Below are positions 158 to 9,493 of a DNA stretch of 64,000 nucleotides, piece after piece; position 1 is the stretch's first letter, and each line of letters starts with the position of its first letter. A model generated the notes under the pieces. The model was not told the DNA's origin. It ran no database searches and worked only from the letters and a program-made list of their open reading frames with translations. The stretch lies in contig JAVXGI010000003.1 of the NCBI GenBank assembly GCA_036657515.1, positions 45-64,044 of the forward strand. The letters run 5' to 3'. This DNA comes from Bacilli bacterium (GTDB lineage Bacteria > Bacillota_I > Bacilli_A > RFN20 > CAG-826). The position numbers and the translations under genes are program-made.

Positions 158-850
158 TTATAACTGTGTTTTTTTGGTAATAGCAACGTTATATTCTGCT
201 TTTATTGAAACAATTTGTGATGTAGTAGGAGTAACGATACTTACTTCTTCATGAGTAATTAATCCACGATCATTTAATTCGAGTAAATGTTTTGATTCAG
301 TATCTTTAGCTGAAAGATTAGCATCAATTGTTAAGGCATTTCCTTTTTTAGTATAGGTAATACTACCATTTGCAAATGAAGTAGAAAATTCAACAAAAGA
401 GGTAGAATTAAATGATGCTAAGCTAGCAAGGGAAGTCTTTCCTGTTGCAATTTGATTTTGAGCTTCTGGAGCAGAAATAGAAACACAACTACCAGCAAGA
501 GAAGAACACATGTTATATTGTCCATCAGCTTTAAATATTAAAGCTTCAAGAGACATGTTAGGCATTACGATAGATGAATAATAGTAGAGATCTTTAAGAT
601 CAATATGTACAATTTGATTTAAAGTAGATTCTCCATTAGTTATTGTACTAGCAGTATAGACGATAGAATTTAAGGCATCAAATTCTTGTGAAGCATTATA
701 ACTATTTAAAAGAGTTTTAGCCTCTTCTGATGAAATGCTTGATTCACATGATGTTAAGCCTACTGATAAAAGACAAGCAGCGCTTATTAAAAATATTTTA
801 TTTTTCATATAAATACCCCCTATGAATATTAAAGATAATACACCTTTCAA
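158..850 (-). CDS. putative lipoprotein (signal peptide + lipobox LTSC)
   Basis: 230-aa ORF. N-terminal hydrophobic signal ends in L-T-S-C lipobox. No recognisable catalytic motifs. Confidence 0.55.
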   Translation of the reverse strand: MKGVLSLIFIGGIYMKNKIFLISAACLLSVGLTSCESSISSEEAKTLLNSYNASQEFDALNSIVYTASTITNGESTLNQIVHIDLKDLYYYSSIVMPNMSLEALIFKADGQYNMCSSLAGSCVSISAPEAQNQIATGKTSLASLASFNSTSFVEFSTSFANGSITYTKKGNALTIDANLSAKDTESKHLLELNDRGLITHEEVSIVTPTTSQIVSIKAEYNVAITKKTQL

Positions 851-958: not shown

Positions 959-1810
959 TTATTCAAGAGTAGTTTTTTTGTTTTTTATTGGAGAATTATA
1001 AGTAATGTTACCTTTTGCGGAGACTTCACTATTTTGATACATTCCTGTTCCAGCAAGACTAGTTAATAGACCATAATCATTAAAGGTAAATCTTCCTGTT
1101 TCAAGAAGATAGGTTTCATATGATATTTCTGAGGCTACTTCAAATATAATAGAAGAGGCGCCAGTAACATAAAAGTTTAAGTTACTGACGTAAGCATTAT
1201 TTAATAAGAAGGTTCTTATAAATAATGCTTTGAAAGCATTTTGCTTTGAATTAGCGATAAGTGTTTTAGTTTCTTCTTCGGTCTTATTTCCAGTATTTGT
1301 AGCATTAGGATTACTGCTAAGATATTGATATTGATTATCTATTTTATTAACTAGATCAATGAGTTTTTTATCTAATATAAAAGCATATGTTTCCTTAATA
1401 TATGAATACATATAATATTCTCCTGGAGTATCATCTATTTGTTGAATAAATTTATAAGCATATACTCCTTGAATAGCACTAGCTGTACTTTCTTCTTGAA
1501 TAGTATTTATATAGTTAAATGATTCTGTTTCATTAATTCGTGTAAAAGCAATAGCTAATGCTTCTTCATATGTTATTGGTTCTATTTTATTTGGATCATG
1601 ATCACCAATTGAGACAAAGGAACTAGGTATTGAAATAGGAGTAGTAATACTAGTTGTTGAAGAAGGCTTACTAGAAGTACTAGTAGTAGTAGTTGAAGTA
1701 GAAGAAGACGAAATATTACTAGAAGAACTAGTAGTAGAACTAGTATATCCAGTACACGAGGTTATCATTGCTAAAGGAGCAATTAACGTAAATAATAATT
1801 TTCTTTTCAT
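959..1810 (-). CDS. Ser/Thr-rich (mucin-like linker) lipoprotein
   Basis: 283-aa ORF. Signal peptide with ITSC lipobox, followed by ~45 aa that are almost pure S/T (TSSTTSSSSNISSSSTSTTTTSTSS...), then a globular domain. Confidence 0.55.
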   Translation of the reverse strand: MKRKLLFTLIAPLAMITSCTGYTSSTTSSSSNISSSSTSTTTTSTSSKPSSTTSITTPISIPSSFVSIGDHDPNKIEPITYEEALAIAFTRINETESFNYINTIQEESTASAIQGVYAYKFIQQIDDTPGEYYMYSYIKETYAFILDKKLIDLVNKIDNQYQYLSSNPNATNTGNKTEEETKTLIANSKQNAFKALFIRTFLLNNAYVSNLNFYVTGASSIIFEVASEISYETYLLETGRFTFNDYGLLTSLAGTGMYQNSEVSAKGNITYNSPIKNKKTTLE

Positions 1811-1919
1811 AATATAATTCCTTATATCTAAATTATATAGTTTTATTTACTAAAATGGTATTTTTTTGATTGAATTGTAAATAAAATTATTGTATATTAA
1901 ATAAGCGCAAAGCGTATGT

Positions 1920-1996
1920 GGGCCTTTAGCTCAGTTGGTTAGAGCGCGTCCCTGATAAGGACGAGGTCGATAGTTCGAGCCTATTAAGGCCCACCA
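1920..1996 (+). tRNA. tRNA-Ile (anticodon GAT)
   Basis: Cloverleaf read by eye: acceptor GGGCCTT/AAGGCCC, D-arm AGCTCAGTTGGTTAGAGC, anticodon loop CTGATAA, T-arm GGTTCGAGCC, encoded CCA. Confidence 0.85.
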
Positions 1997-2041
1997 TTAA
2001 ATTTGCAACATACTATTTCTTAGAGATTGAATGAGTTAAGT

Positions 2042-2116
2042 GGACATTTAGCTCAGCGGGAGAGCGCTTCCTTCACACGGAAGAGGCCATAGGTTCAATC
2101 CCTATAATGTCCACCA
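2042..2116 (+). tRNA. tRNA-Val (anticodon CAC)
   Basis: Acceptor GGACATT/AATGTCC, anticodon stem CTTCC/GGAAG with loop TTCACAC, T-arm GGTTCAATCC, encoded CCA. Confidence 0.75.
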
Positions 2117-2122
2117 ATATAC

Positions 2123-2198
2123 GCCGTCTTAGCTCAATTGGCAGAGCAATTGATTTGTAATCAATAGGTTGTTGGTTCGATTCCGATAGACGGCACCA
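2123..2198 (+). tRNA. tRNA-Thr (anticodon TGT)
   Basis: Acceptor GCCGTCT/AGACGGC, anticodon stem ATTGA/TCAAT with loop TTTGTAA, T-arm GGTTCGATTCC, encoded CCA. Confidence 0.8.
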
Positions 2199-2207
2199 GA
2201 AAAAAAC

Positions 2208-2241
2208 AATAAATCGATCCTTACGAAGGATCGATTTTTTA
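2208..2241 (+). terminator. rho-independent terminator after tRNA cluster
   Basis: Hairpin AATCGATCCTT-ACGA-AGGATCGATT followed by a T-run. Confidence 0.7.
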
Positions 2242-2504
2242 TATTTTACGTTTATTTTCTAACGTCATAAATCGATTTTGATACGTAAACGTAAAAGATA
2301 TTTATACTCGAACCCACGAACTAAATTTAAAAAGAAAAAAGATTTAAAACAAATAACGTATAAGTAAAAGTAAATTGAATTGAAAATATTTAACTTAAAA
2401 GTTTAATATTTTCAAAATAATAAAACTAGATTATAATGGTATTATTCAAAGTGAAAACATGAGTTATTAAAGTTTGTTAAATAAATAATTTTAGGTAAAG
2501 AAAG

Positions 2505-3155
2505 ATGAATAAAGAATGGTCGGAAAAAAATAAAGAAGTAAAATTATTGTTAAATAATAGAGTTTCTTTTAATAAAGGAATTAAAGAATTAATAAAGTTA
2601 AGAACTCTATTATTTTATTATTGGTTTGATTCTATGAAAGAATTATCAAATGATGATTATTCAAAACAACCTTTTATTGCTAAAGAAGGATATGAATCTA
2701 AAACAATTTCTTATTCTATTTATCATGTATTTAGAATTGAAGATATTGTATTAAATACATTAATAAAAAACAAACAACAAATTTTTACGAGAGATAATTA
2801 CCAAAATAAAATGAATTCATCAATTATTACAACAGGAAACGAATTAAAAAAGGAATGTATTTTTAATTTTTCTAAAAAATTAAAAATAGAAGAATTGTGG
2901 AATTATGCAAAAGAAGTATTTGAAGAATCAAATGAACGGTTATCTTTACTTACGTTTGAAGATTTAGGAATAATATATTCTGAAGAAGATAAGAATAGAA
3001 TTAGAATAACTAATACAATAGCTCCAAGTGAAATGTGGTTGATTGACTATTGGTGTGATAAAAATATTAAAGGGTTATTAGGAATGCCGTTTTCACGTCA
3101 TTATATAATGCATTTAGAAGCATCGCTTAGAATCAAGAATAAGATTGTTAGATAA
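2505..3155 (+). CDS. hypothetical protein
   Basis: 216-aa ORF with no motif I can assign. AT-rich, preceded by a long non-coding stretch. Confidence 0.4.
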   Translation: MNKEWSEKNKEVKLLLNNRVSFNKGIKELIKLRTLLFYYWFDSMKELSNDDYSKQPFIAKEGYESKTISYSIYHVFRIEDIVLNTLIKNKQQIFTRDNYQNKMNSSIITTGNELKKECIFNFSKKLKIEELWNYAKEVFEESNERLSLLTFEDLGIIYSEEDKNRIRITNTIAPSEMWLIDYWCDKNIKGLLGMPFSRHYIMHLEASLRIKNKIVR

Positions 3156-3441
3156 ATAAAGTCATTAATATAAAACAAACACTTTAAGGATAAATCAAGG
3201 GATTATAAATTGAGTGGTTATGTTTAAACTATTTGTTATTTGTAATTACATGTATATAAGAAACGTCTATGAGGACTGGTGCTGATTGCATTGTTGATAT
3301 TAACAGGGAAAAGAAGTTTTATTAATTTAATTTATTTTTTTAATGAAAGACAGTGTTTCTATTTTAATAACGTTAAACTTAGTATCTAACCTCAATTAAA
3401 TAACGTAAACATACATCAATTAAATAACGAAATTATACGTA

Positions 3442-3469
3442 TTGACATATCTTGAATAGGTTCTATAAT
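3442..3469 (+). promoter_or_regulatory. sigma-70 type promoter (TTGACA-16bp-TATAAT) with long structured 5' leader, copy 1
   Basis: Consensus -35/-10 hexamers read directly. The ~100-nt leader carries an 11-bp inverted repeat, ATTTGAAAATA (3494-3504) / TATTTTCAAAT (3529-3539). The whole ~190-bp block is repeated at 4477-4645. Confidence 0.6.
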
Positions 3470-3569
3470 ATTTTAAAAGAAGACATTTTATTATTTGAAA
3501 ATATTGGCTTGTAATTAAATAATGGCTCTATTTTCAAATAATATATTTTTCAATTAAAAGGAGAAGAAT

Positions 3570-3923
3570 ATGGATGTTAAAGAACATAAATTTAAAATAG
3601 GAGATGCAGTAGTCCTAAAGGAAAGAGACCCTAAGTGGGATGAAGAAGTTATTATAGAACTAATCGTTGGTTATGTCGAGGATCCTAAACTTACGTATAT
3701 TAGCGATATAGAACGAGCTGAGTTATTAGAATCAAATTATGAGTATGTAATTGAATTTGTTGGCTGTGATTGTGGATGGGGCACACTAAGCAACAGACAA
3801 TATGTCAAAGAGTCACAAATTTATAAATGTAAATATAATTCTATCGAAGACTATGAAGATTGGGAATTTGTAGAGGATGCACGAGAAATACTTAGAAAAC
3901 GTGAAAATTCAAATAACAAATGA
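3570..3923 (+). CDS. small acidic Cys-containing protein (117 aa), paralog copy A
   Basis: Good RBS (AAAAGGAGAAGAATATG). It is 117 aa with a CDCGWG motif and an N-terminal KFKIGDAV motif. A near-identical paralog lies at 6346-6699. Confidence 0.7.
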   Translation: MDVKEHKFKIGDAVVLKERDPKWDEEVIIELIVGYVEDPKLTYISDIERAELLESNYEYVIEFVGCDCGWGTLSNRQYVKESQIYKCKYNSIEDYEDWEFVEDAREILRKRENSNNK

Positions 3924-3955
3924 TTCAAAATATCAAAAGTTGTCCAATAAAATAG

Positions 3956-4210
3956 TTGCTTATTAAAGATGATTCTAAACCAGCATATTTATTTTTGCTT
4001 TTTCATACATTATTATTTTGTCATTTGTGTAAGAATGGCGAAGAATACAATAATGAATACATAGAGTGGGTTAAAAAAGTGTTTACTGATATGTTTCCTG
4101 AGAATATTAATGTAGTATACTTTGCTATTTATACACTTAAAAATAATGAAGTAGTAGAAGTTTATAGACCTGTTTTGCATAAAAAAGATTTTGAAATTCT
4201 AACCACTTGA
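3956..4210 (+). pseudogene. 3' gene fragment homologous to the C-terminus of the 127-aa protein at 7035-7418 (orphan cassette)
   Basis: No RBS. The last ~50 codons (IEWVKKVFTDMFPENINVVYFAIYTLKNNEVVEVYRPVLH.KDFEI) are nearly identical to the 3' end of 7035-7418, while the N-terminal part is unrelated. Confidence 0.55.
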
Positions 4211-4476
4211 ATGAGCAAACTTTAATGTAAAGCGTCAGTTTTGCTATTTTTTATTTTTCTCATAACAAATTTAATAGCGAACCTGTTTTTTTAGGTCTTA
4301 TCTATAGCAAAAAACACTTTAAACTAAAAACATAAAAGGTATTTATGTTCAAATAAAATATAATAATGCATGTTTTTCAAAAAAAGCATGAAAACAACTT
4401 TTTTACTTTATAATTTTGTAATTTACATCTGTTTCACATTTTATGGTTTGATTCTTATTTAATTTGTAATGAAATT

Positions 4477-4645
4477 GTTGTCTAACCTCACCTCAATTAA
4501 ATAACGAAATTATACGTATTGACATATTTAAAACACATTCTATAATATTTTAAAGAAGACATTTTATTATTTGAAAATATTGGCTTGTAATTAAATAACG
4601 GCTCTATTTTCAAATAATATATTTTTCAATTAAAAGGAGAAAAAT
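4477..4645 (+). promoter_or_regulatory. second copy of the promoter + structured leader (TTGACA 4519-4524, TATAAT 4541-4546)
   Basis: Near-identical to 3381-3569, including the 11-bp inverted repeat (4569-4579 / 4605-4615) and the RBS. Here it drives the unrelated 473-aa gene. Confidence 0.6.
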
Positions 4646-6067
4646 ATGGGATTTAAGAAAAAATTATTGTTTCTAACTTGTTTAGCATTTACATTTATTA
4701 CAGTATGTAGACCGATTGCTTCTTCAAATGAATATGAGAAAGTTGAGAAAAATTTACTTACAGAAGTAAAAAGAGCAATTAACGTTTCTAATGAAGAAGA
4801 TATTAATAATCCTGATTTTATTTTCGATAATTCAATTAATGAATACAAAAAACAATTTGCAGAATATATTAATATAACTGGTTTGAATGTTAGCGAAAAG
4901 GACGAAATAGAACTTCCAAACTTTAATTTATCTTATATTGCACCAAATTACAGTGATGTGATGTTAGGATATCAAACAAAACTTGAAAATAGTTTATCTA
5001 CAGAAGATCTAGTTAAGTATGAAGAACTTAGACATCAAGATTTTAATTTTGATAGATATGTTGCTTTAAATTGCGTTAAATACGAAAATTTAACGCCAAC
5101 CTTAAAATATAGCCATAATATTTGTCCTATTCAACCGATTAATCCTGTTACTCCTTTAAATCCTGCAATCAATGTAGGCGATGTTTCGACTAGAGCGGTT
5201 GTTGCTGGAACTTCAGCGATAGTTTCGATTTTAACTATGGCCGGTTTAGGACAGACTGCAATTACAGCTTTTACCGCCTGTATTTCAACAATTACTGCAG
5301 GTCTTTCTACAAGCTGGATTCCATTTATTGGTTGGATACTTGCTATTGCAATAGTCACTGGAGCTTTAATTGCTTTAGTGGTAATTATTGTTCAAAATTG
5401 GGAAGCTATTTGCGACGCGATGGAACAAATTAAATCATGGTTTTTGGAACAATTTGCAAGCTTTGCTGCTTTAATAACTTCATTTTTTGCTGATGCAATC
5501 GCAAAAGGAATTGAATCAACAATTGCTGGAAGAGATCACATAGGAAATAAAGAATTGGTATGGAAATCAAAAACTGTTGAAAAAGAGAGCGCTATTGCAT
5601 TGACAGAATCGTTAAGAAGAGATAAAAAAAGAATATTTTTAATGAAAAATGTTAGAAAGAAAGTCAATCCAATTGATAATGGGATGTATGTTAATTATTG
5701 GACCACTGATGGATACTATGATGAGGATTTTGTAACATCATTTAATCTTTATGATTACGGTATAAGTACATATACTTGGTACAATGATAATGCAAGGCGT
5801 CTTATGCTTAATGGAAGTACGAAAATACAATATAATCCCACTGAATATACAATTATGTATCATAATTTTTTAATAAATGATACAGCACTAAATGGATGGA
5901 ATCACTATCATATTTATGGAGTAAAATTAAATAGTGAGACTAATCAAAAGGAATATAACGATTTACACGGAGATTTACTTCATAAAGCTCATTCATTCTT
6001 TGGCCTTATGTATCTTAAATCTATTGATGGACAAATTGAGACACAAACTTTTCCAAAAAATCCATAA
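4646..6067 (+). CDS. secreted/membrane protein: signal peptide, N-domain, two hydrophobic helices (Gly/Ala/Thr-rich hairpin), aromatic His-rich C-terminal domain
   Basis: 473-aa ORF. N-terminal signal (possible lipobox ITVC), ~70-aa hydrophobic segment AVVAGTSAIVSILTMAGLGQTAITAFTACISTITAGLSTSWIPFIGWILAIAIVTGALIALVVIIV, and a C-terminal region rich in Y/W/H (HYHIYGVK, LHGDLLHKAHSFFG). Confidence 0.65.
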   Translation: MGFKKKLLFLTCLAFTFITVCRPIASSNEYEKVEKNLLTEVKRAINVSNEEDINNPDFIFDNSINEYKKQFAEYINITGLNVSEKDEIELPNFNLSYIAPNYSDVMLGYQTKLENSLSTEDLVKYEELRHQDFNFDRYVALNCVKYENLTPTLKYSHNICPIQPINPVTPLNPAINVGDVSTRAVVAGTSAIVSILTMAGLGQTAITAFTACISTITAGLSTSWIPFIGWILAIAIVTGALIALVVIIVQNWEAICDAMEQIKSWFLEQFASFAALITSFFADAIAKGIESTIAGRDHIGNKELVWKSKTVEKESAIALTESLRRDKKRIFLMKNVRKKVNPIDNGMYVNYWTTDGYYDEDFVTSFNLYDYGISTYTWYNDNARRLMLNGSTKIQYNPTEYTIMYHNFLINDTALNGWNHYHIYGVKLNSETNQKEYNDLHGDLLHKAHSFFGLMYLKSIDGQIETQTFPKNP

Positions 6068-6345
6068 TTAAATATAGTTTAAACATATGTGGTAGTGTAC
6101 ATCAAGAAAAATGAGAAATACAACGAATTCAATTATGGTGTATAAATTGTTATCGACTATGTTAAAAAAAACATGAATATATGATTATACTGCGAATGAA
6201 TATTTTGAACTTACAAAAGATATACAGGTTAAATTTCAAAAAAGAAAATATAGATCTACATAAGTTTCAATATCATTAATACGATTAATTATTAAAAGAT
6301 TTAAGCATAATACTTATTATTACGAAAATTTAAAAGGAGAAGAAT

Positions 6346-6699
6346 ATGGATGTTAAAGAACATAAATTTAAAATAGGAGACGCAGTAATCCTAAAGGAAA
6401 GAGACCCTAGTTGGAATGAAGAAGATGTTATAGAAATGATTGTTGGTTATGTTGAGGATCCTAAACTTACGTATATTAGTGATAGAAAAAGAGCTGAGTT
6501 ATTAGAATTAAATTATGAGTATGTAATTGAATTTGTTGGCTGTGATTGCGGATGTGGCACACTAAGCAACAGACAATATGTCAAAGAGTCACAAATTTAT
6601 AAATGTAAATATAATTCTATCGAAGACTATGAAGATTGGGAATTTGTAGAGGATGCACGAGAAATACTTAGAAAACGTGAAAATTCAAATAACAAATGA
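6346..6699 (+). CDS. small acidic Cys-containing protein (117 aa), paralog copy B
   Basis: About 90% identical to 3570-3923, with the same RBS but different upstream sequence. Motif is CDCGCG. Confidence 0.7.
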   Translation: MDVKEHKFKIGDAVILKERDPSWNEEDVIEMIVGYVEDPKLTYISDRKRAELLELNYEYVIEFVGCDCGCGTLSNRQYVKESQIYKCKYNSIEDYEDWEFVEDAREILRKRENSNNK

Positions 6700-6731
6700 T
6701 TCAAAATATCAAAAGTTGTCCAATAAAATAG

Positions 6732-6986
6732 TTGCTTATTAAAGATGATTCTAAACCAGCATATTTATTTTTGCTTTTTCATACATTATTATTTTGTCAT
6801 TTGTGTAAGAATGGCGAAGAATACAATAATGAATACATAGAGTGGGTTAAAAAAGTGTTTACTGATATGTTTCCTGAGAATATTAATGTAGTATACTTTG
6901 CTATTTATACACTTAAAAATAATGAAGTAGTAGAAGTTTATAGACCTGTTTTGCATAGAAAAGATTTTGAAATTTCGACAACTTGA
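6732..6986 (+). pseudogene. second copy of the 3' gene fragment (orphan cassette)
   Basis: Near-identical to 3956-4210. No RBS. Confidence 0.5.
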
Positions 6987-7034: not shown

Positions 7035-7418
7035 ATGAAATTTAAATATGGCGACTTAGTATATAGCACAGAATTAAGAAAAATAGAACATCTTTTTCCA
7101 ATGCTTGTTATTAAGTTTTACAGTAAAAAAGATAAGTATTTATGCTTAACTGCATCAAGGTATTCTCCAGGTGATGAAGGCACTATTTTTTATCTTGTGG
7201 CCGAAAGTGAATTAACTATGTTTGAACATTTTGACGGCGAGGATGGCGAAGAATTCAATGATGATCATATAGAGTGGGTTAAAAAAGTGTTTACTGATAT
7301 GTTTCCTGAGAATATTAATGTAGTATACTTTGCTATTTATACACTTAAAAATAATGAAGTAGTAGAAGTTTATAGACCTGTTTTGCATAGAAAAGATTTT
7401 GAAATTCCAACAACTTGA
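7035..7418 (+). CDS. 127-aa protein; N-terminal KFKYGDLV motif, C-terminal domain shared with the two upstream fragments
   Basis: RBS GGAGG precedes the ATG. The C-terminal 50 aa are identical to the fragments at 3956-4210 and 6732-6986. The N-terminus resembles the N-terminus of the 117-aa proteins (KFK-GD-V). Confidence 0.65.
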   Translation: MKFKYGDLVYSTELRKIEHLFPMLVIKFYSKKDKYLCLTASRYSPGDEGTIFYLVAESELTMFEHFDGEDGEEFNDDHIEWVKKVFTDMFPENINVVYFAIYTLKNNEVVEVYRPVLHRKDFEIPTT

Positions 7419-7621
7419 ATGAGCAAGCCTTAATTTTTTTAGTTCTTTTTAATAAAAAACTCTTTTAACTAAAAACATAAAAGATACATGTGCTGTGAAA
7501 GTATCAGATTAGACACATAAAAATAATACTGTAAACTATCTTTCTAAATTTTATGAGTTAAGTATGACTAATGGTTATTTCATTTTTAATAGTAAAAAGA
7601 CATATTAACTTATTTATTATT

Positions 7622-8771: not shown

Positions 8772-9011
8772 TTACCTTTTTGTTTGTTTATATATTTTAA
8801 TAATAACAATTATAATTCCGATTAAACTAGATATAGATAAAATTGTTAAGATGATTACTGTTATTATTGCATCAGGTAGTCTCATAAAAGAATTCATAGG
8901 TGAAAAAGTAACAACGTAATGAATCATCGGAACAAGACAAAAGGTTGATAGTGCAAAAAGAATTATCAAGAGTACTAAGAGGGTTATTTTTAAACCAAGT
9001 TTCTTTTTCAT
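8772..9011 (-). CDS. small two-TM membrane protein
   Basis: 79 aa, almost entirely hydrophobic. Start overlaps the stop of the upstream gene. Confidence 0.45.
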   Translation of the reverse strand: MKKKLGLKITLLVLLIILFALSTFCLVPMIHYVVTFSPMNSFMRLPDAIITVIILTILSISSLIGIIIVIIKIYKQTKR

Positions 9012-9493
9012 TTTGTACTTTCCTTATATATTTTTGAGTAGGAAATTAATTCGGGCATCTTATTAAAAGCTGAGAATAAATCTCCATTATTTAACAAACC
9101 TTTTTCATAAGATTCAAGTGGAGTATAAAAAATATCGTCATCAAATTTATATAACAAAAATTTAATTTTATATTTAAAAGAATAAGTAAAAGTAGCGAAT
9201 TCTAAATTCCAATTCTTAGTAGTTTTATCAATTTCCCACGCTACAAAAAAACAGGTATCTTTATCTTCGGATTGAATTCTTGAAATAAATTTTGAATACT
9301 CTGTATCTTCAACTTCGGCTTTTGGGTTGGTTGGAAGAATATACTTATTATAATAAGATCTTAACATTGTAAAATTCTCAAAAACAGATGGCGTTACATC
9401 ATCGATTGGTTTAAATATTATAGGTCCACATGATGAAAGTGACAAAGTAATTGCAAATAAAATATAAAATTTTATTTTAAAAGGATTTTTCAT
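9008..9493 (-). CDS. putative lipoprotein
   Basis: 161 aa with signal peptide and LSSCGP lipobox. Confidence 0.5.
   Translation of the reverse strand: MKNPFKIKFYILFAITLSLSSCGPIIFKPIDDVTPSVFENFTMLRSYYNKYILPTNPKAEVEDTEYSKFISRIQSEDKDTCFFVAWEIDKTTKNWNLEFATFTYSFKYKIKFLLYKFDDDIFYTPLESYEKGLLNNGDLFSAFNKMPELISYSKIYKESTK

Follow-up and report, generated by a model that had tools for sequence, protein, structure and literature searches.

A candidate polymorphic toxin-immunity system of a new protein family in RFN20-type gut Bacilli

The stretch of DNA analysed here (the window) comprises 64,000 nucleotides (nt) from a Bacilli bacterium (assembly GCA_036657515.1, contig JAVXGI010000003.1, positions 45 to 64,044 of the forward strand), and the gene under study is an open reading frame (ORF) of 473 amino acids (aa) at 4646-6067 (+). 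Comparison with its relatives indicates that this gene probably encodes the toxin of a polymorphic toxin-immunity system, in which the small flanking ORFs would be immunity genes. The putative toxin family is new: no named trafficking, toxin or immunity family includes it. Swapping of the C-terminal domain, downstream partner genes specific to the C-terminal subtype, orphan genes, decay of the toxin gene and varied genomic context were all observed, a combination characteristic of polymorphic toxins that have cognate as well as orphan immunity genes.

Domain swapping was analysed over about 63 loci, with the N part taken as aa 25-288 for pairwise identities. Many pairs of proteins are 85-95 % identical in the N part and 18-33 % identical in the C part, as in P0022/P0039 (95 % and 32 %), P0037/P0043 (95 % and 20 %) and P0017/P0029 (85 % and 18 %); the converse case was found in P0017/P0038, with 57 % identity in the N part and 79 % in the C part. 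Sliding-window identities for four pairs place a sharp breakpoint at aa 285-295, with identities of 90-100 % before it dropping to 20-40 % over ten residues. Judging from these alignments, the N part (aa 1-290) and the C part (aa 292-473) evolve independently by recombination.

The C part occurs in at least five homologous subtypes, which are told apart by the sequence around the first two His residues, and the subtype is matched by the gene that follows. Partner genes were counted as assignable ORFs located at -25 to +23 nt from the toxin stop codon, so that the window pair (278 nt apart) was left out. Subtype GWNHYHLG is followed by partner family F1 (13 loci), GWNHYH.G[KM]Y by F4 (6 loci), [AGS]F.H[FY]HN by F0/F9 (17 loci), GFNHYHVFEY together with the A-like variants of loci L015 and L061 by F2 (10 loci), and KHFHNC by F9 (3 loci). 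Subtype and partner agreed for all 49 classifiable ORFs immediately downstream, and the combined F0/F9 cluster was found downstream of 17 of the 18 type-B toxins. Partner identity correlated with identity of the C part with r = 0.79, rising to 0.97 for pairs with N parts at least 80 % identical, and with identity of the N part with r = 0.51. The partner proteins are small and carry neither a signal peptide nor a membrane segment, and by sequence they look cytosolic; a K-x-G-D-x-V hairpin motif stands at the start of most of them. Homology could be demonstrated only between F0 and F9 (hhalign 94 %). A single superfamily for all partners was considered and dropped, as the comparison of F0 with F2/F4 was not significant beyond the shared K-x-G-D-x-V start.

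Immunity-like genes that do not match the toxin follow the cognate one in the window and at L014, L022/L055, L027 and L064. C-terminal toxin fragments that stand alone beside an immunity-like gene were identified at L032/L064 (128-aa fragment and F2), L033 (117 aa and 118 aa), L061, L065 and L027 (2332-2577), where a type-E C-terminal piece lies inside an array of F0 and F1 genes; such fragments resemble orphan C-terminal toxin-immunity cassettes. At five loci (L019, L025, L028, L029 and L030) the toxin gene is broken and the downstream immunity-like ORF stays open. The breaks consist of frameshifts, one TGA and one TAA, and L030 has three frame changes and a stop codon. These genes could be real pseudogenes or assembly errors in metagenome-assembled genomes (MAGs). 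A genetic-code artefact was rejected, as systematic TGA codons were absent.

Within the window, the toxin gene lies between the two copies of a direct repeat (3554-4210 and 6330-6986; 657 nt, 96.5 % identity). The initial annotation had placed the gene in a duplicated cassette, and this link proved to be the key clue to the system. A 161-nt segment with promoter, leader and ribosome-binding site (RBS) is also duplicated; its TTGACA-16-TATAAT elements at 3442-3469 and 4519-4546 agree with the consensus at 12 of 12 positions. From their placement, copy 1 is predicted to drive the upstream 117-aa gene and copy 2 the toxin gene, so that one of the immunity copies would be transcribed from a separate copy of the toxin promoter. 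The two 117-aa proteins are 91 % identical in amino acid sequence and gave no match in Pfam, NCBIfam or PADLOC; they belong to F2, the family found directly downstream of type-A toxins at 10 other loci, and the downstream copy is presumed on this comparison to be the cognate immunity gene of the window toxin. The spacer between this copy and the toxin stop codon (6068-6345; 278 nt) is AT-rich, unique sequence with no detectable ORF remnant. The two 84-aa ORFs are recombination remnants, that is, 5'-truncated or recombined F0 genes placed behind an unrelated N-terminus; a DNA repeat (4032-4226 = 7240-7434) joins the first of them to the gene for the 127-aa protein. The latter is a full-length F0 member, a family that elsewhere directly follows type-B (AFKHFHN) toxins. 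As tblastn of the window for a second toxin gene found none, and hence no type-B toxin, the 127-aa gene is an orphan immunity-like gene. The upstream set would be best explained by loss of the toxin from a duplicated cassette.

Searches with the 473-aa protein returned 56 full-length homologues of 430-485 aa with 33-52 % identity, all of them unannotated, and 83 distinct full-length members were collected when all searches were pooled. The C-terminal domain searched alone, as a profile of the C-terminal 188 aa, recovered only its own family among 1.84 billion cluster representatives (54 proteins with the same architecture or fragments thereof), and a profile of the N-domain recovered from 5.8 billion proteins only fragments of the same family and no protein with a different C-terminus. 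Since all profiles return only proteins of this architecture or their fragments, the three parts are always joined to one another, in a family of small size and narrow phylogenetic range. Pfam, NCBIfam and PADLOC scans of the 473-aa protein gave no match, and when Pfam, NCBIfam, PHROG and PADLOC were applied to the toxin, to member-by-member domain alignments and to the partner families, only PHROG families of tape measure proteins were matched. The initial annotation had described an effector-type exported protein of unknown family rather than a transporter. That description is upheld: no homology to a housekeeping family was found, and no known family claimed the protein in Pfam, NCBIfam, PADLOC, PDB sequence or Foldseek searches.

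The gene is a genuine ORF with an ATG start, exactly as first described, with no competing frame and no comparable ORF on the opposite strand. Its product contains all the parts initially noted, namely a signal peptide, a soluble region, a ~70-aa hydrophobic segment rich in small residues and a C-terminus rich in Tyr, Trp, His and Asn (Table 1). The stretch MGFKKKLLFLTCLAFTFITVCRPIASS at the N-terminus forms the n-region plus h-region of a Sec signal peptide, and the signal sequence is composed of MGFKKK and LLFLTCLAFTFITV. An A-x-A-type cleavage site (e.g. between IATA and NE) is present in most relatives in the family alignment, and we infer cleavage in the 473-aa protein as well. A lipoprotein reading was dropped, since most members lack a Cys such as the one at position 21 of the window protein. 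The N-domain, with conserved residues Y74, LNV80-82, FD135-136 and K154, is predicted to be extracytoplasmic and may serve in receptor binding or as a stalk; its Pfam scan gave no match in any member. Modelling of the full-length protein with AlphaFold2 (AF2) from the family alignment (predicted local distance difference test, pLDDT, 78.8; predicted template modelling score, pTM, 0.76) produced the helical N-domain and five consecutive helices (181-198, 203-222, 228-250, 252-269 and 271-290). The last two belong to the junction region, for which the family consensus is DAxAQGE(E/K)S, with S291 conserved in 98 % of members.

Table 1. Features of the putative toxin and of the cassette in the window.
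Feature	Residues	Position (strand)	Basis or remarks
Signal peptide, Sec-type (predicted)	1-27	4646-4726 (+)	KKK n-region, 15-aa h-region; family consensus, hydrophobicity scan
Helical N-domain, then Pro-rich linker	28-182	4727-5191 (+)	Family alignments; AF2 pLDDT 80-90 over aa 70-160
Hydrophobic module, uncharged, three helices, rich in small residues	183-252 (70 aa)	5192-5401 (+)	AF2, hydrophobicity scan, composition
Junction region, two amphipathic, net-acidic helices ending in DAIAKGIES (aa 283-291)	253-291	5402-5518 (+)	Sliding-window identity, conservation
C-terminal alpha/beta domain, variable, putative toxin, A-like subtype GWNHYHIYGV	292-473 and stop	5519-6067 (+)	AF2, conservation over 83 members
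His-triad codons	H420, H422, H449	5903-5905, 5909-5911, 5990-5992 (+)	
Promoter and 5' leader, copy 1		3413-3573 (+)	161 nt, 93.8 % identical to 4490-4649; before upstream 117-aa gene
Promoter and 5' leader, copy 2		4490-4649 (+)	Before toxin gene
117-aa immunity-like protein, F2, copy 1		3570-3923 (+)	No signal peptide; starts with KFKIGDAV motif
117-aa immunity-like protein, F2, copy 2		6346-6699 (+)	Own RBS; 278 nt past toxin stop
84-aa ORF (TTG start), F0 remnant, copy 1		3956-4210 (+)	Last 59 aa 86 % identical to aa 69-127 of the 127-aa protein
84-aa F0-like ORF, copy 2		6732-6986 (+)	98 % aa identity to copy 1
127-aa full-length F0 protein		7035-7418 (+)	39 % identity (E 1e-32) to the ORF following toxin P0029

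The C-terminal domain was modelled alone with high scores (AF2; pLDDT 91.7, pTM 0.88) as a compact alpha/beta globular fold. Tyr, Trp, His and Asn make up 24 % of aa 291-473, compared with 13 % in the long ORFs of the window; the N-domain reaches 21 %, because Asn is common in this genome of 29.8 % GC. HYHIYGVK begins at aa 420 and LHGDLLHKAHSFFG at aa 440. Over the 83 full-length members the conserved residues are [ST]375, Y376, T377, W378, A383, K/R384, H420, an aromatic residue at 421, H422, H449, S450, F452, G453 and P470. The HxH...H triad (H420, H422, H449) is invariant in all of them, even the most divergent, and no Asp, Glu or Asn of the domain is conserved across the same set. Sets of His/His/His with Lys/Arg and Thr/Ser/Tyr lacking acidic residues are typical of metal-independent phosphodiesterases, e.g. 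many RNase toxins. As no acidic residue is conserved, a metal-independent phosphodiesterase such as an RNase is favoured; an RNase or other nuclease is nevertheless only a lead, which within the toxin hypothesis we regard as possible and a little short of probable, and a three-His (HxH...H) zinc hydrolase is the alternative. The PDB gave a best E of only 0.26 in sequence searches with the whole protein (phmmer) and the C-domain profile, and Foldseek searches with the C-domain model against PDB and BFVD, and with the full-length model against PDB, gave best E values of 0.14-0.33 with template modelling (TM) scores of at most 0.29. JAB/MPN proteins and small alarmone synthetases recurred as weak PDB matches in Foldseek and were rejected at TM-scores of ~0.2. 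A JAMM site was discarded since its conserved Glu/Asp is absent from the family, and 2H phosphoesterase and HNH readings of the His motifs were discarded on spacing and secondary structure.

Phage tail-fibre tips paired with Tfa chaperones likewise combine a constant N-terminus with a variable C-terminus and a downstream gene that co-varies, and structural iron is bound by HxH motifs in T4 gp37 and P2-type tail spikes. The protein might on this analogy be a surface adhesin or receptor-binding protein with a C-domain varied for different ligands, the small protein being a domain-specific assembly chaperone and the His residues ligands of a structural metal; one clade of the family does lie in prophage. 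We consider this very improbable. Orphan partner genes with no matching C-domain, such as that at 7035-7418 of the window, would be useless as chaperones, and a cytosolic chaperone is awkward for a domain exported unfolded via Sec. Moreover, the prophage copy is located between replication/modification genes and the terminase, outside the tail module, no fold likeness to fibre tips was found in BFVD or PDB, and the conserved His/His/His/Thr/Ser/Tyr/Lys set looks like an active site.

The hydrophobic module (aa 183-252) has R183 as its sole charged residue and consists to 46 % of Gly, Ala, Ser and Thr. Eight small-xxx-small motifs were counted, of which four (G219-S223, G229-A233, A235-G239 and G239-A243) are conserved in the family. 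Strong hydrophobicity is confined to aa 227-250 (summed Hessa dG -4.8), the helices 184-202 and 204-224 being marginal (Hessa dG +2 to +3.5), and the flank after the last hydrophobic helix is net acidic (-1.75 on average). With a mean column identity of 68 % (N-domain 50 %, C-domain 38 %) and 24 invariant positions, the module is the best-conserved part of the protein, which argues for a sequence-specific role more than for a passive anchor. Member-by-member PHROG scanning gave matches to phrog_28 (tape measure) for 24 of 32 proteins (E 1e-5 to 6e-8); nine of the ten PHROG families matched are tape measure proteins, always over aa ~183-290, and the matches are weak (~27 bits). A profile of the module searched against 5.8 billion proteins retrieved only fragments of the family and no tape measure protein, BLAST for tape measure similarity gave E ~0.7, and tblastn of the whole protein against 50,697 phage records gave no match. 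The likeness to tape measure proteins is therefore given as a resemblance, with homology unproven, and may be compositional. The 473-aa protein was rejected as a tape measure protein itself: it is short, has globular N- and C-domains and no long coiled coil, and has a non-tail context at all loci.

The strong conservation of the module and its small-xxx-small motifs could also be read as a sign that the glycine-zipper-like hydrophobic hairpin is itself lethal, with the C-domain an accessory, as in pore-forming colicins or the glycine-zipper depolarising toxins of type VII secretion systems (T7SS). Membrane-depolarising glycine-zipper toxins are known, among them TspA (PMC7456083), EsxX (PMC12744356) and the N-terminus of Tde1 (PMC10240207). 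For the present family such a pore-forming toxin is most unlikely, as specificity and immunity track the C-domain and not the invariant hydrophobic module, and one type of immunity would suffice if that module alone killed. Pore-forming bacteriocins have immunity proteins embedded in the membrane; the immunity-like proteins found here have no membrane segment. A pore-forming colicin-type bacteriocin was also rejected on the searches, there being no Pfam match and no Foldseek match to colicin or other pore-forming domains. With specificity following the C-domain and with soluble immunity proteins, the hydrophobic module is not the sole lethal element; a secondary membrane-permeabilising activity, as in Tde1, is possible by analogy. 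The initial comparison with pore-forming or membrane-inserting effector domains thus stood in part: an exported effector with a best-conserved hydrophobic segment was found, but the Tyr/Trp/His-rich C-region is an alpha/beta globular domain with a His triad, variable and partner-matched. Its one-to-one matching with small soluble proteins is as expected of an enzymatic toxin that has a cytoplasmic immunity protein, and not of a pore-former.

The loci lie in varied contexts, including a prophage moron position, a defence island, a site beside ftsZ and housekeeping neighbourhoods. Conserved synteny with unrelated genes, which would have spoken for another role, was not seen. The sole constant unit is the toxin with the small downstream gene, joined at 11 loci by an upstream third member, FAM3. 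FAM3 is a polytopic membrane protein of 107-135 aa with an HEYGH (HExxH) motif, encoded 60-175 nt (mostly 60-105 nt) upstream of the toxin whatever the C-terminal subtype or context (L003 5573-5941; L006/L023 5543-5929; L042 3543-3929; L022 5571-5894; L055 3508-3894; L035-L037; L049; L063). It gave no match in Pfam, NCBIfam or PADLOC, is absent from the window, and could be a processing peptidase or other accessory of the system. At the loci of the prophage clade (L006, L007, L008, L023 and L042) the toxin-immunity pair occupies a moron-like position, flanked on one side by genes for ParB-methyltransferase, SAM synthetase and HNH proteins and on the opposite side by those for amidoligase, GGACT and the large terminase. 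L002 (same locus as L018) carries at 4074-4466 a 130-aa ORF (P0111) that repeats the first ~101 residues of the toxin; it lies 3.5 kb upstream of the intact toxin gene, with HNH/EcoRI-methylase-like and AAA_21 genes between them, and looks like a 5' toxin fragment left by insertion or duplication.

Family members were found in gut metagenomes and MAGs labelled as Bacilli, Mollicutes, Ca. Enteromonas, Ca. Onthovivens and Ca. Enterosoma (RFN20 type). Four 'cleanbin' MAG sources (L012, L013, L015/L026 and L020) are labelled as Bacteroides uniformis, Hallerella sp., Lachnospiraceae bacterium and Escherichia coli, and yet have the RFN20-type family on loci of 34-42 % GC; these labels are probably erroneous. 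The RFN20 families CAG-826 and CAG-288, in which Ca. Enteromonas and Ca. Enterosoma have been placed (PMC8035907), are predicted to be peptidoglycan-free (PMC10868615), and the hosts are probably wall-less. L003-L005 contain (~1050-5073) a division cluster mraZ-rsmH-two small ORFs-ftsA-ftsZ with no mur or pbp genes, a Mollicutes arrangement that fits a peptidoglycan-deficient host.

From its signal peptide, the protein should be exported by Sec and its N-domain should lie outside the cell, and the soluble, signal-less immunity proteins imply a cytoplasmic target. On a polymorphic toxin reading, the Sec machinery would export the toxin so that its N-domain ends up outside, and the protein would either be held in the membrane of the producer by the hydrophobic module or be released. 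On contact with a related cell, the hydrophobic module with the following helices (aa 183-290) would insert into the target membrane, which would be directly exposed if the hosts are wall-less as is probable, and would carry the C-terminal domain into the target cytoplasm, by analogy with Tde1. There the C-domain would act as an enzyme using H420, H422 and H449 with Y376, T377, S450 and K/R384. Carrier cells would be protected by binding of the matching small protein to the C-domain, and the 127-aa F0 gene would guard its carrier against another toxin subtype produced by neighbouring cells. A bolder form of this scheme, which we hold to be unlikely though not far-fetched, is that wall-less gut Bacilli kill by contact with a single self-delivering protein, whose tape-measure-like module enters the bare membrane of the neighbour and passes a His-triad enzyme of new fold into the cytoplasm unaided by any dedicated machine for secretion or injection; the protein would then represent a minimal device for protein translocation and, for an RFN20/mollicute-like lineage, the first weapon against other bacteria to be described.

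Several points weigh against a polymorphic toxin. Its support comes throughout from comparative genomics. The C-terminal subtypes are all homologous and share a single fold and His triad, and the fold diversity of classic polymorphic toxins is lacking. The immunity gene of the window does not abut the toxin gene as those of its relatives do. An enzymatic activity of the C-domain is a guess, no fold or profile having matched an RNase or any other activity, and the faint resemblance to tape measure proteins, which may be compositional, vanishes in BLAST and whole-database searches. Finally, three hydrophobic helices after a cleaved signal peptide, as modelled, would leave the C-domain in the cytoplasm of the producer, which suits a toxin-antitoxin or defence function better.

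Such a function would be that of a membrane-anchored toxin-antitoxin or abortive-infection module, with the N-domain as an outward sensor (e.g. of phage adsorption or membrane damage) and the C-terminal domain as an enzyme kept in the cell's own cytoplasm and checked by an antitoxin until triggered. Besides the three helices in the AF2 model, the cytosolic look of the partner proteins speaks for it, as does the location of several loci among defence genes (GmrSD, methyltransferases, resolvase, HNH, AAA_21) and of others in prophage. We nevertheless judge it rather improbable. Arrays of non-cognate partner genes and orphan C-terminal fragments are expected for defence against the toxins of neighbours, toxin pseudogenes with a kept partner fit immunity 'cheaters', many loci lie outside defence islands, and the acidic flank after the last helix argues weakly for a C-domain outside the cell. 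Known anti-phage or toxin-antitoxin systems were also excluded as an identity, since PADLOC was silent on the toxin, on four partner families (representatives of F0, F1, F2/F4 and F9) and on FAM3, and Pfam and NCBIfam were likewise.

The putative toxin-immunity system resembles polymorphic toxin systems (PMC3482391) and the Sec-dependent S8 polymorphic toxin systems (S8-PTS; PMC9424270) in having a signal peptide, a constant N-region and a recombining C-terminal domain, together with an immunity gene directly downstream and orphans of both immunity genes and C-terminal cassettes. Of the four genomic criteria examined here for polymorphic toxins in the sense of Zhang et al. (2012; PMC3482391), three were observed, namely swapping, a co-varying downstream immunity gene and orphans; the fourth, unrelated C-terminal folds, was not. 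S8-PTS are composed of a signal peptide, a BetaH domain, a variable toxin and immunity (PMC9424270), whereas the present family has no BetaH, S8 peptidase, LXG, RHS, PT-TG or other known trafficking domain. A toxin of the LXG/WXG type secreted by a T7SS was rejected, as no member had any Pfam match and a Sec signal peptide is present; EssC/WXG genes were likewise absent from the Pfam-annotated loci L001-L010. Unlike classic polymorphic toxins, the family places a conserved hydrophobic module of three helices between N-domain and toxin, has a single fold for all its C-terminal variants instead of many unrelated ones, and occurs in reduced and probably wall-less RFN20 Bacilli.

Nuclease colicins (the DNases E2/E7/E8/E9 and the RNases E3, E5 and D) consist of binding, membrane-crossing and catalytic regions, and their small soluble immunity proteins (Im) are encoded just downstream. 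The present family is closer to their radiation than to Rhs, CdiA or LXG toxins, sharing with it the three-part protein, the downstream soluble immunity and the diversification of one (here putatively) catalytic fold into specificity types. It differs from colicins in that no sequence or fold relation exists, in that a Sec signal is present instead of release by a lysis protein, and in that a hydrophobic helical module takes the place of the Tol/Ton-dependent translocation domain, the target having no outer membrane.

Tde1 is a type VI secretion system (T6SS) DNase in which a tape-measure-like N-terminal glycine-zipper segment makes the target membrane permeable and is needed for translocation (PMC10240207). 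Common to both is a small-residue-rich hydrophobic segment, weakly tape-measure-like, that is joined to an (in our case putative) enzymatic toxin with cytosolic immunity. Tde1 is delivered by the T6SS and has a zipper of ~40 aa at its N-terminus, whereas here an internal module of 70-110 aa follows a signal peptide and an extracytoplasmic domain, with no T6SS; its toxin domain is Ntox15, which the present toxin domain is not. The hydrophobic regions of siphophage tape measure proteins are likewise uncharged stretches of ~70-90 aa rich in Ala, Gly, Ser and Thr with three predicted helices, and two such regions, with three presumed membrane spans apiece, were described for the tape measure protein of TP901-1 (PMC5099701).

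If the polymorphic toxin reading is correct, a kin-discrimination or competition system would be present in RFN20-type organisms, with a toxin domain for which neither sequence nor fold libraries contain a detectable relative. Toxin systems acting between bacteria have been charted well in Proteobacteria, Bacteroidota and walled Firmicutes, and literature searches found no such toxin system described for Mollicutes, Tenericutes, RFN20 or related wall-less gut lineages. The protein would also provide a compact and tractable case of a hydrophobic module that may move a folded enzyme over a lipid bilayer, cytoplasmic membrane crossing being still an open question for many toxins, and strains in gut metagenomes could be told apart by their toxin subtype and immunity genes. 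On the comparative evidence, the relevance to the fields of interbacterial antagonism and membrane translocation would be moderate to high.

Two further observations concern the surroundings of the cassette in the window. The 216-aa protein encoded just upstream of it (2505-3155 (+)) has a weak DinB-like match (mycothiol transferase NF047843, E 1.3e-4) that lies far under the curated cut-off, and gave no sign of membership in the system. Three predicted lipoproteins (158-850 (-), 959-1810 (-) and 9008-9493 (-)) without family matches carry ...(T/S)SC lipoboxes, one of them with a long Ser/Thr-rich linker, and are typical of mollicute-like surface proteomes.

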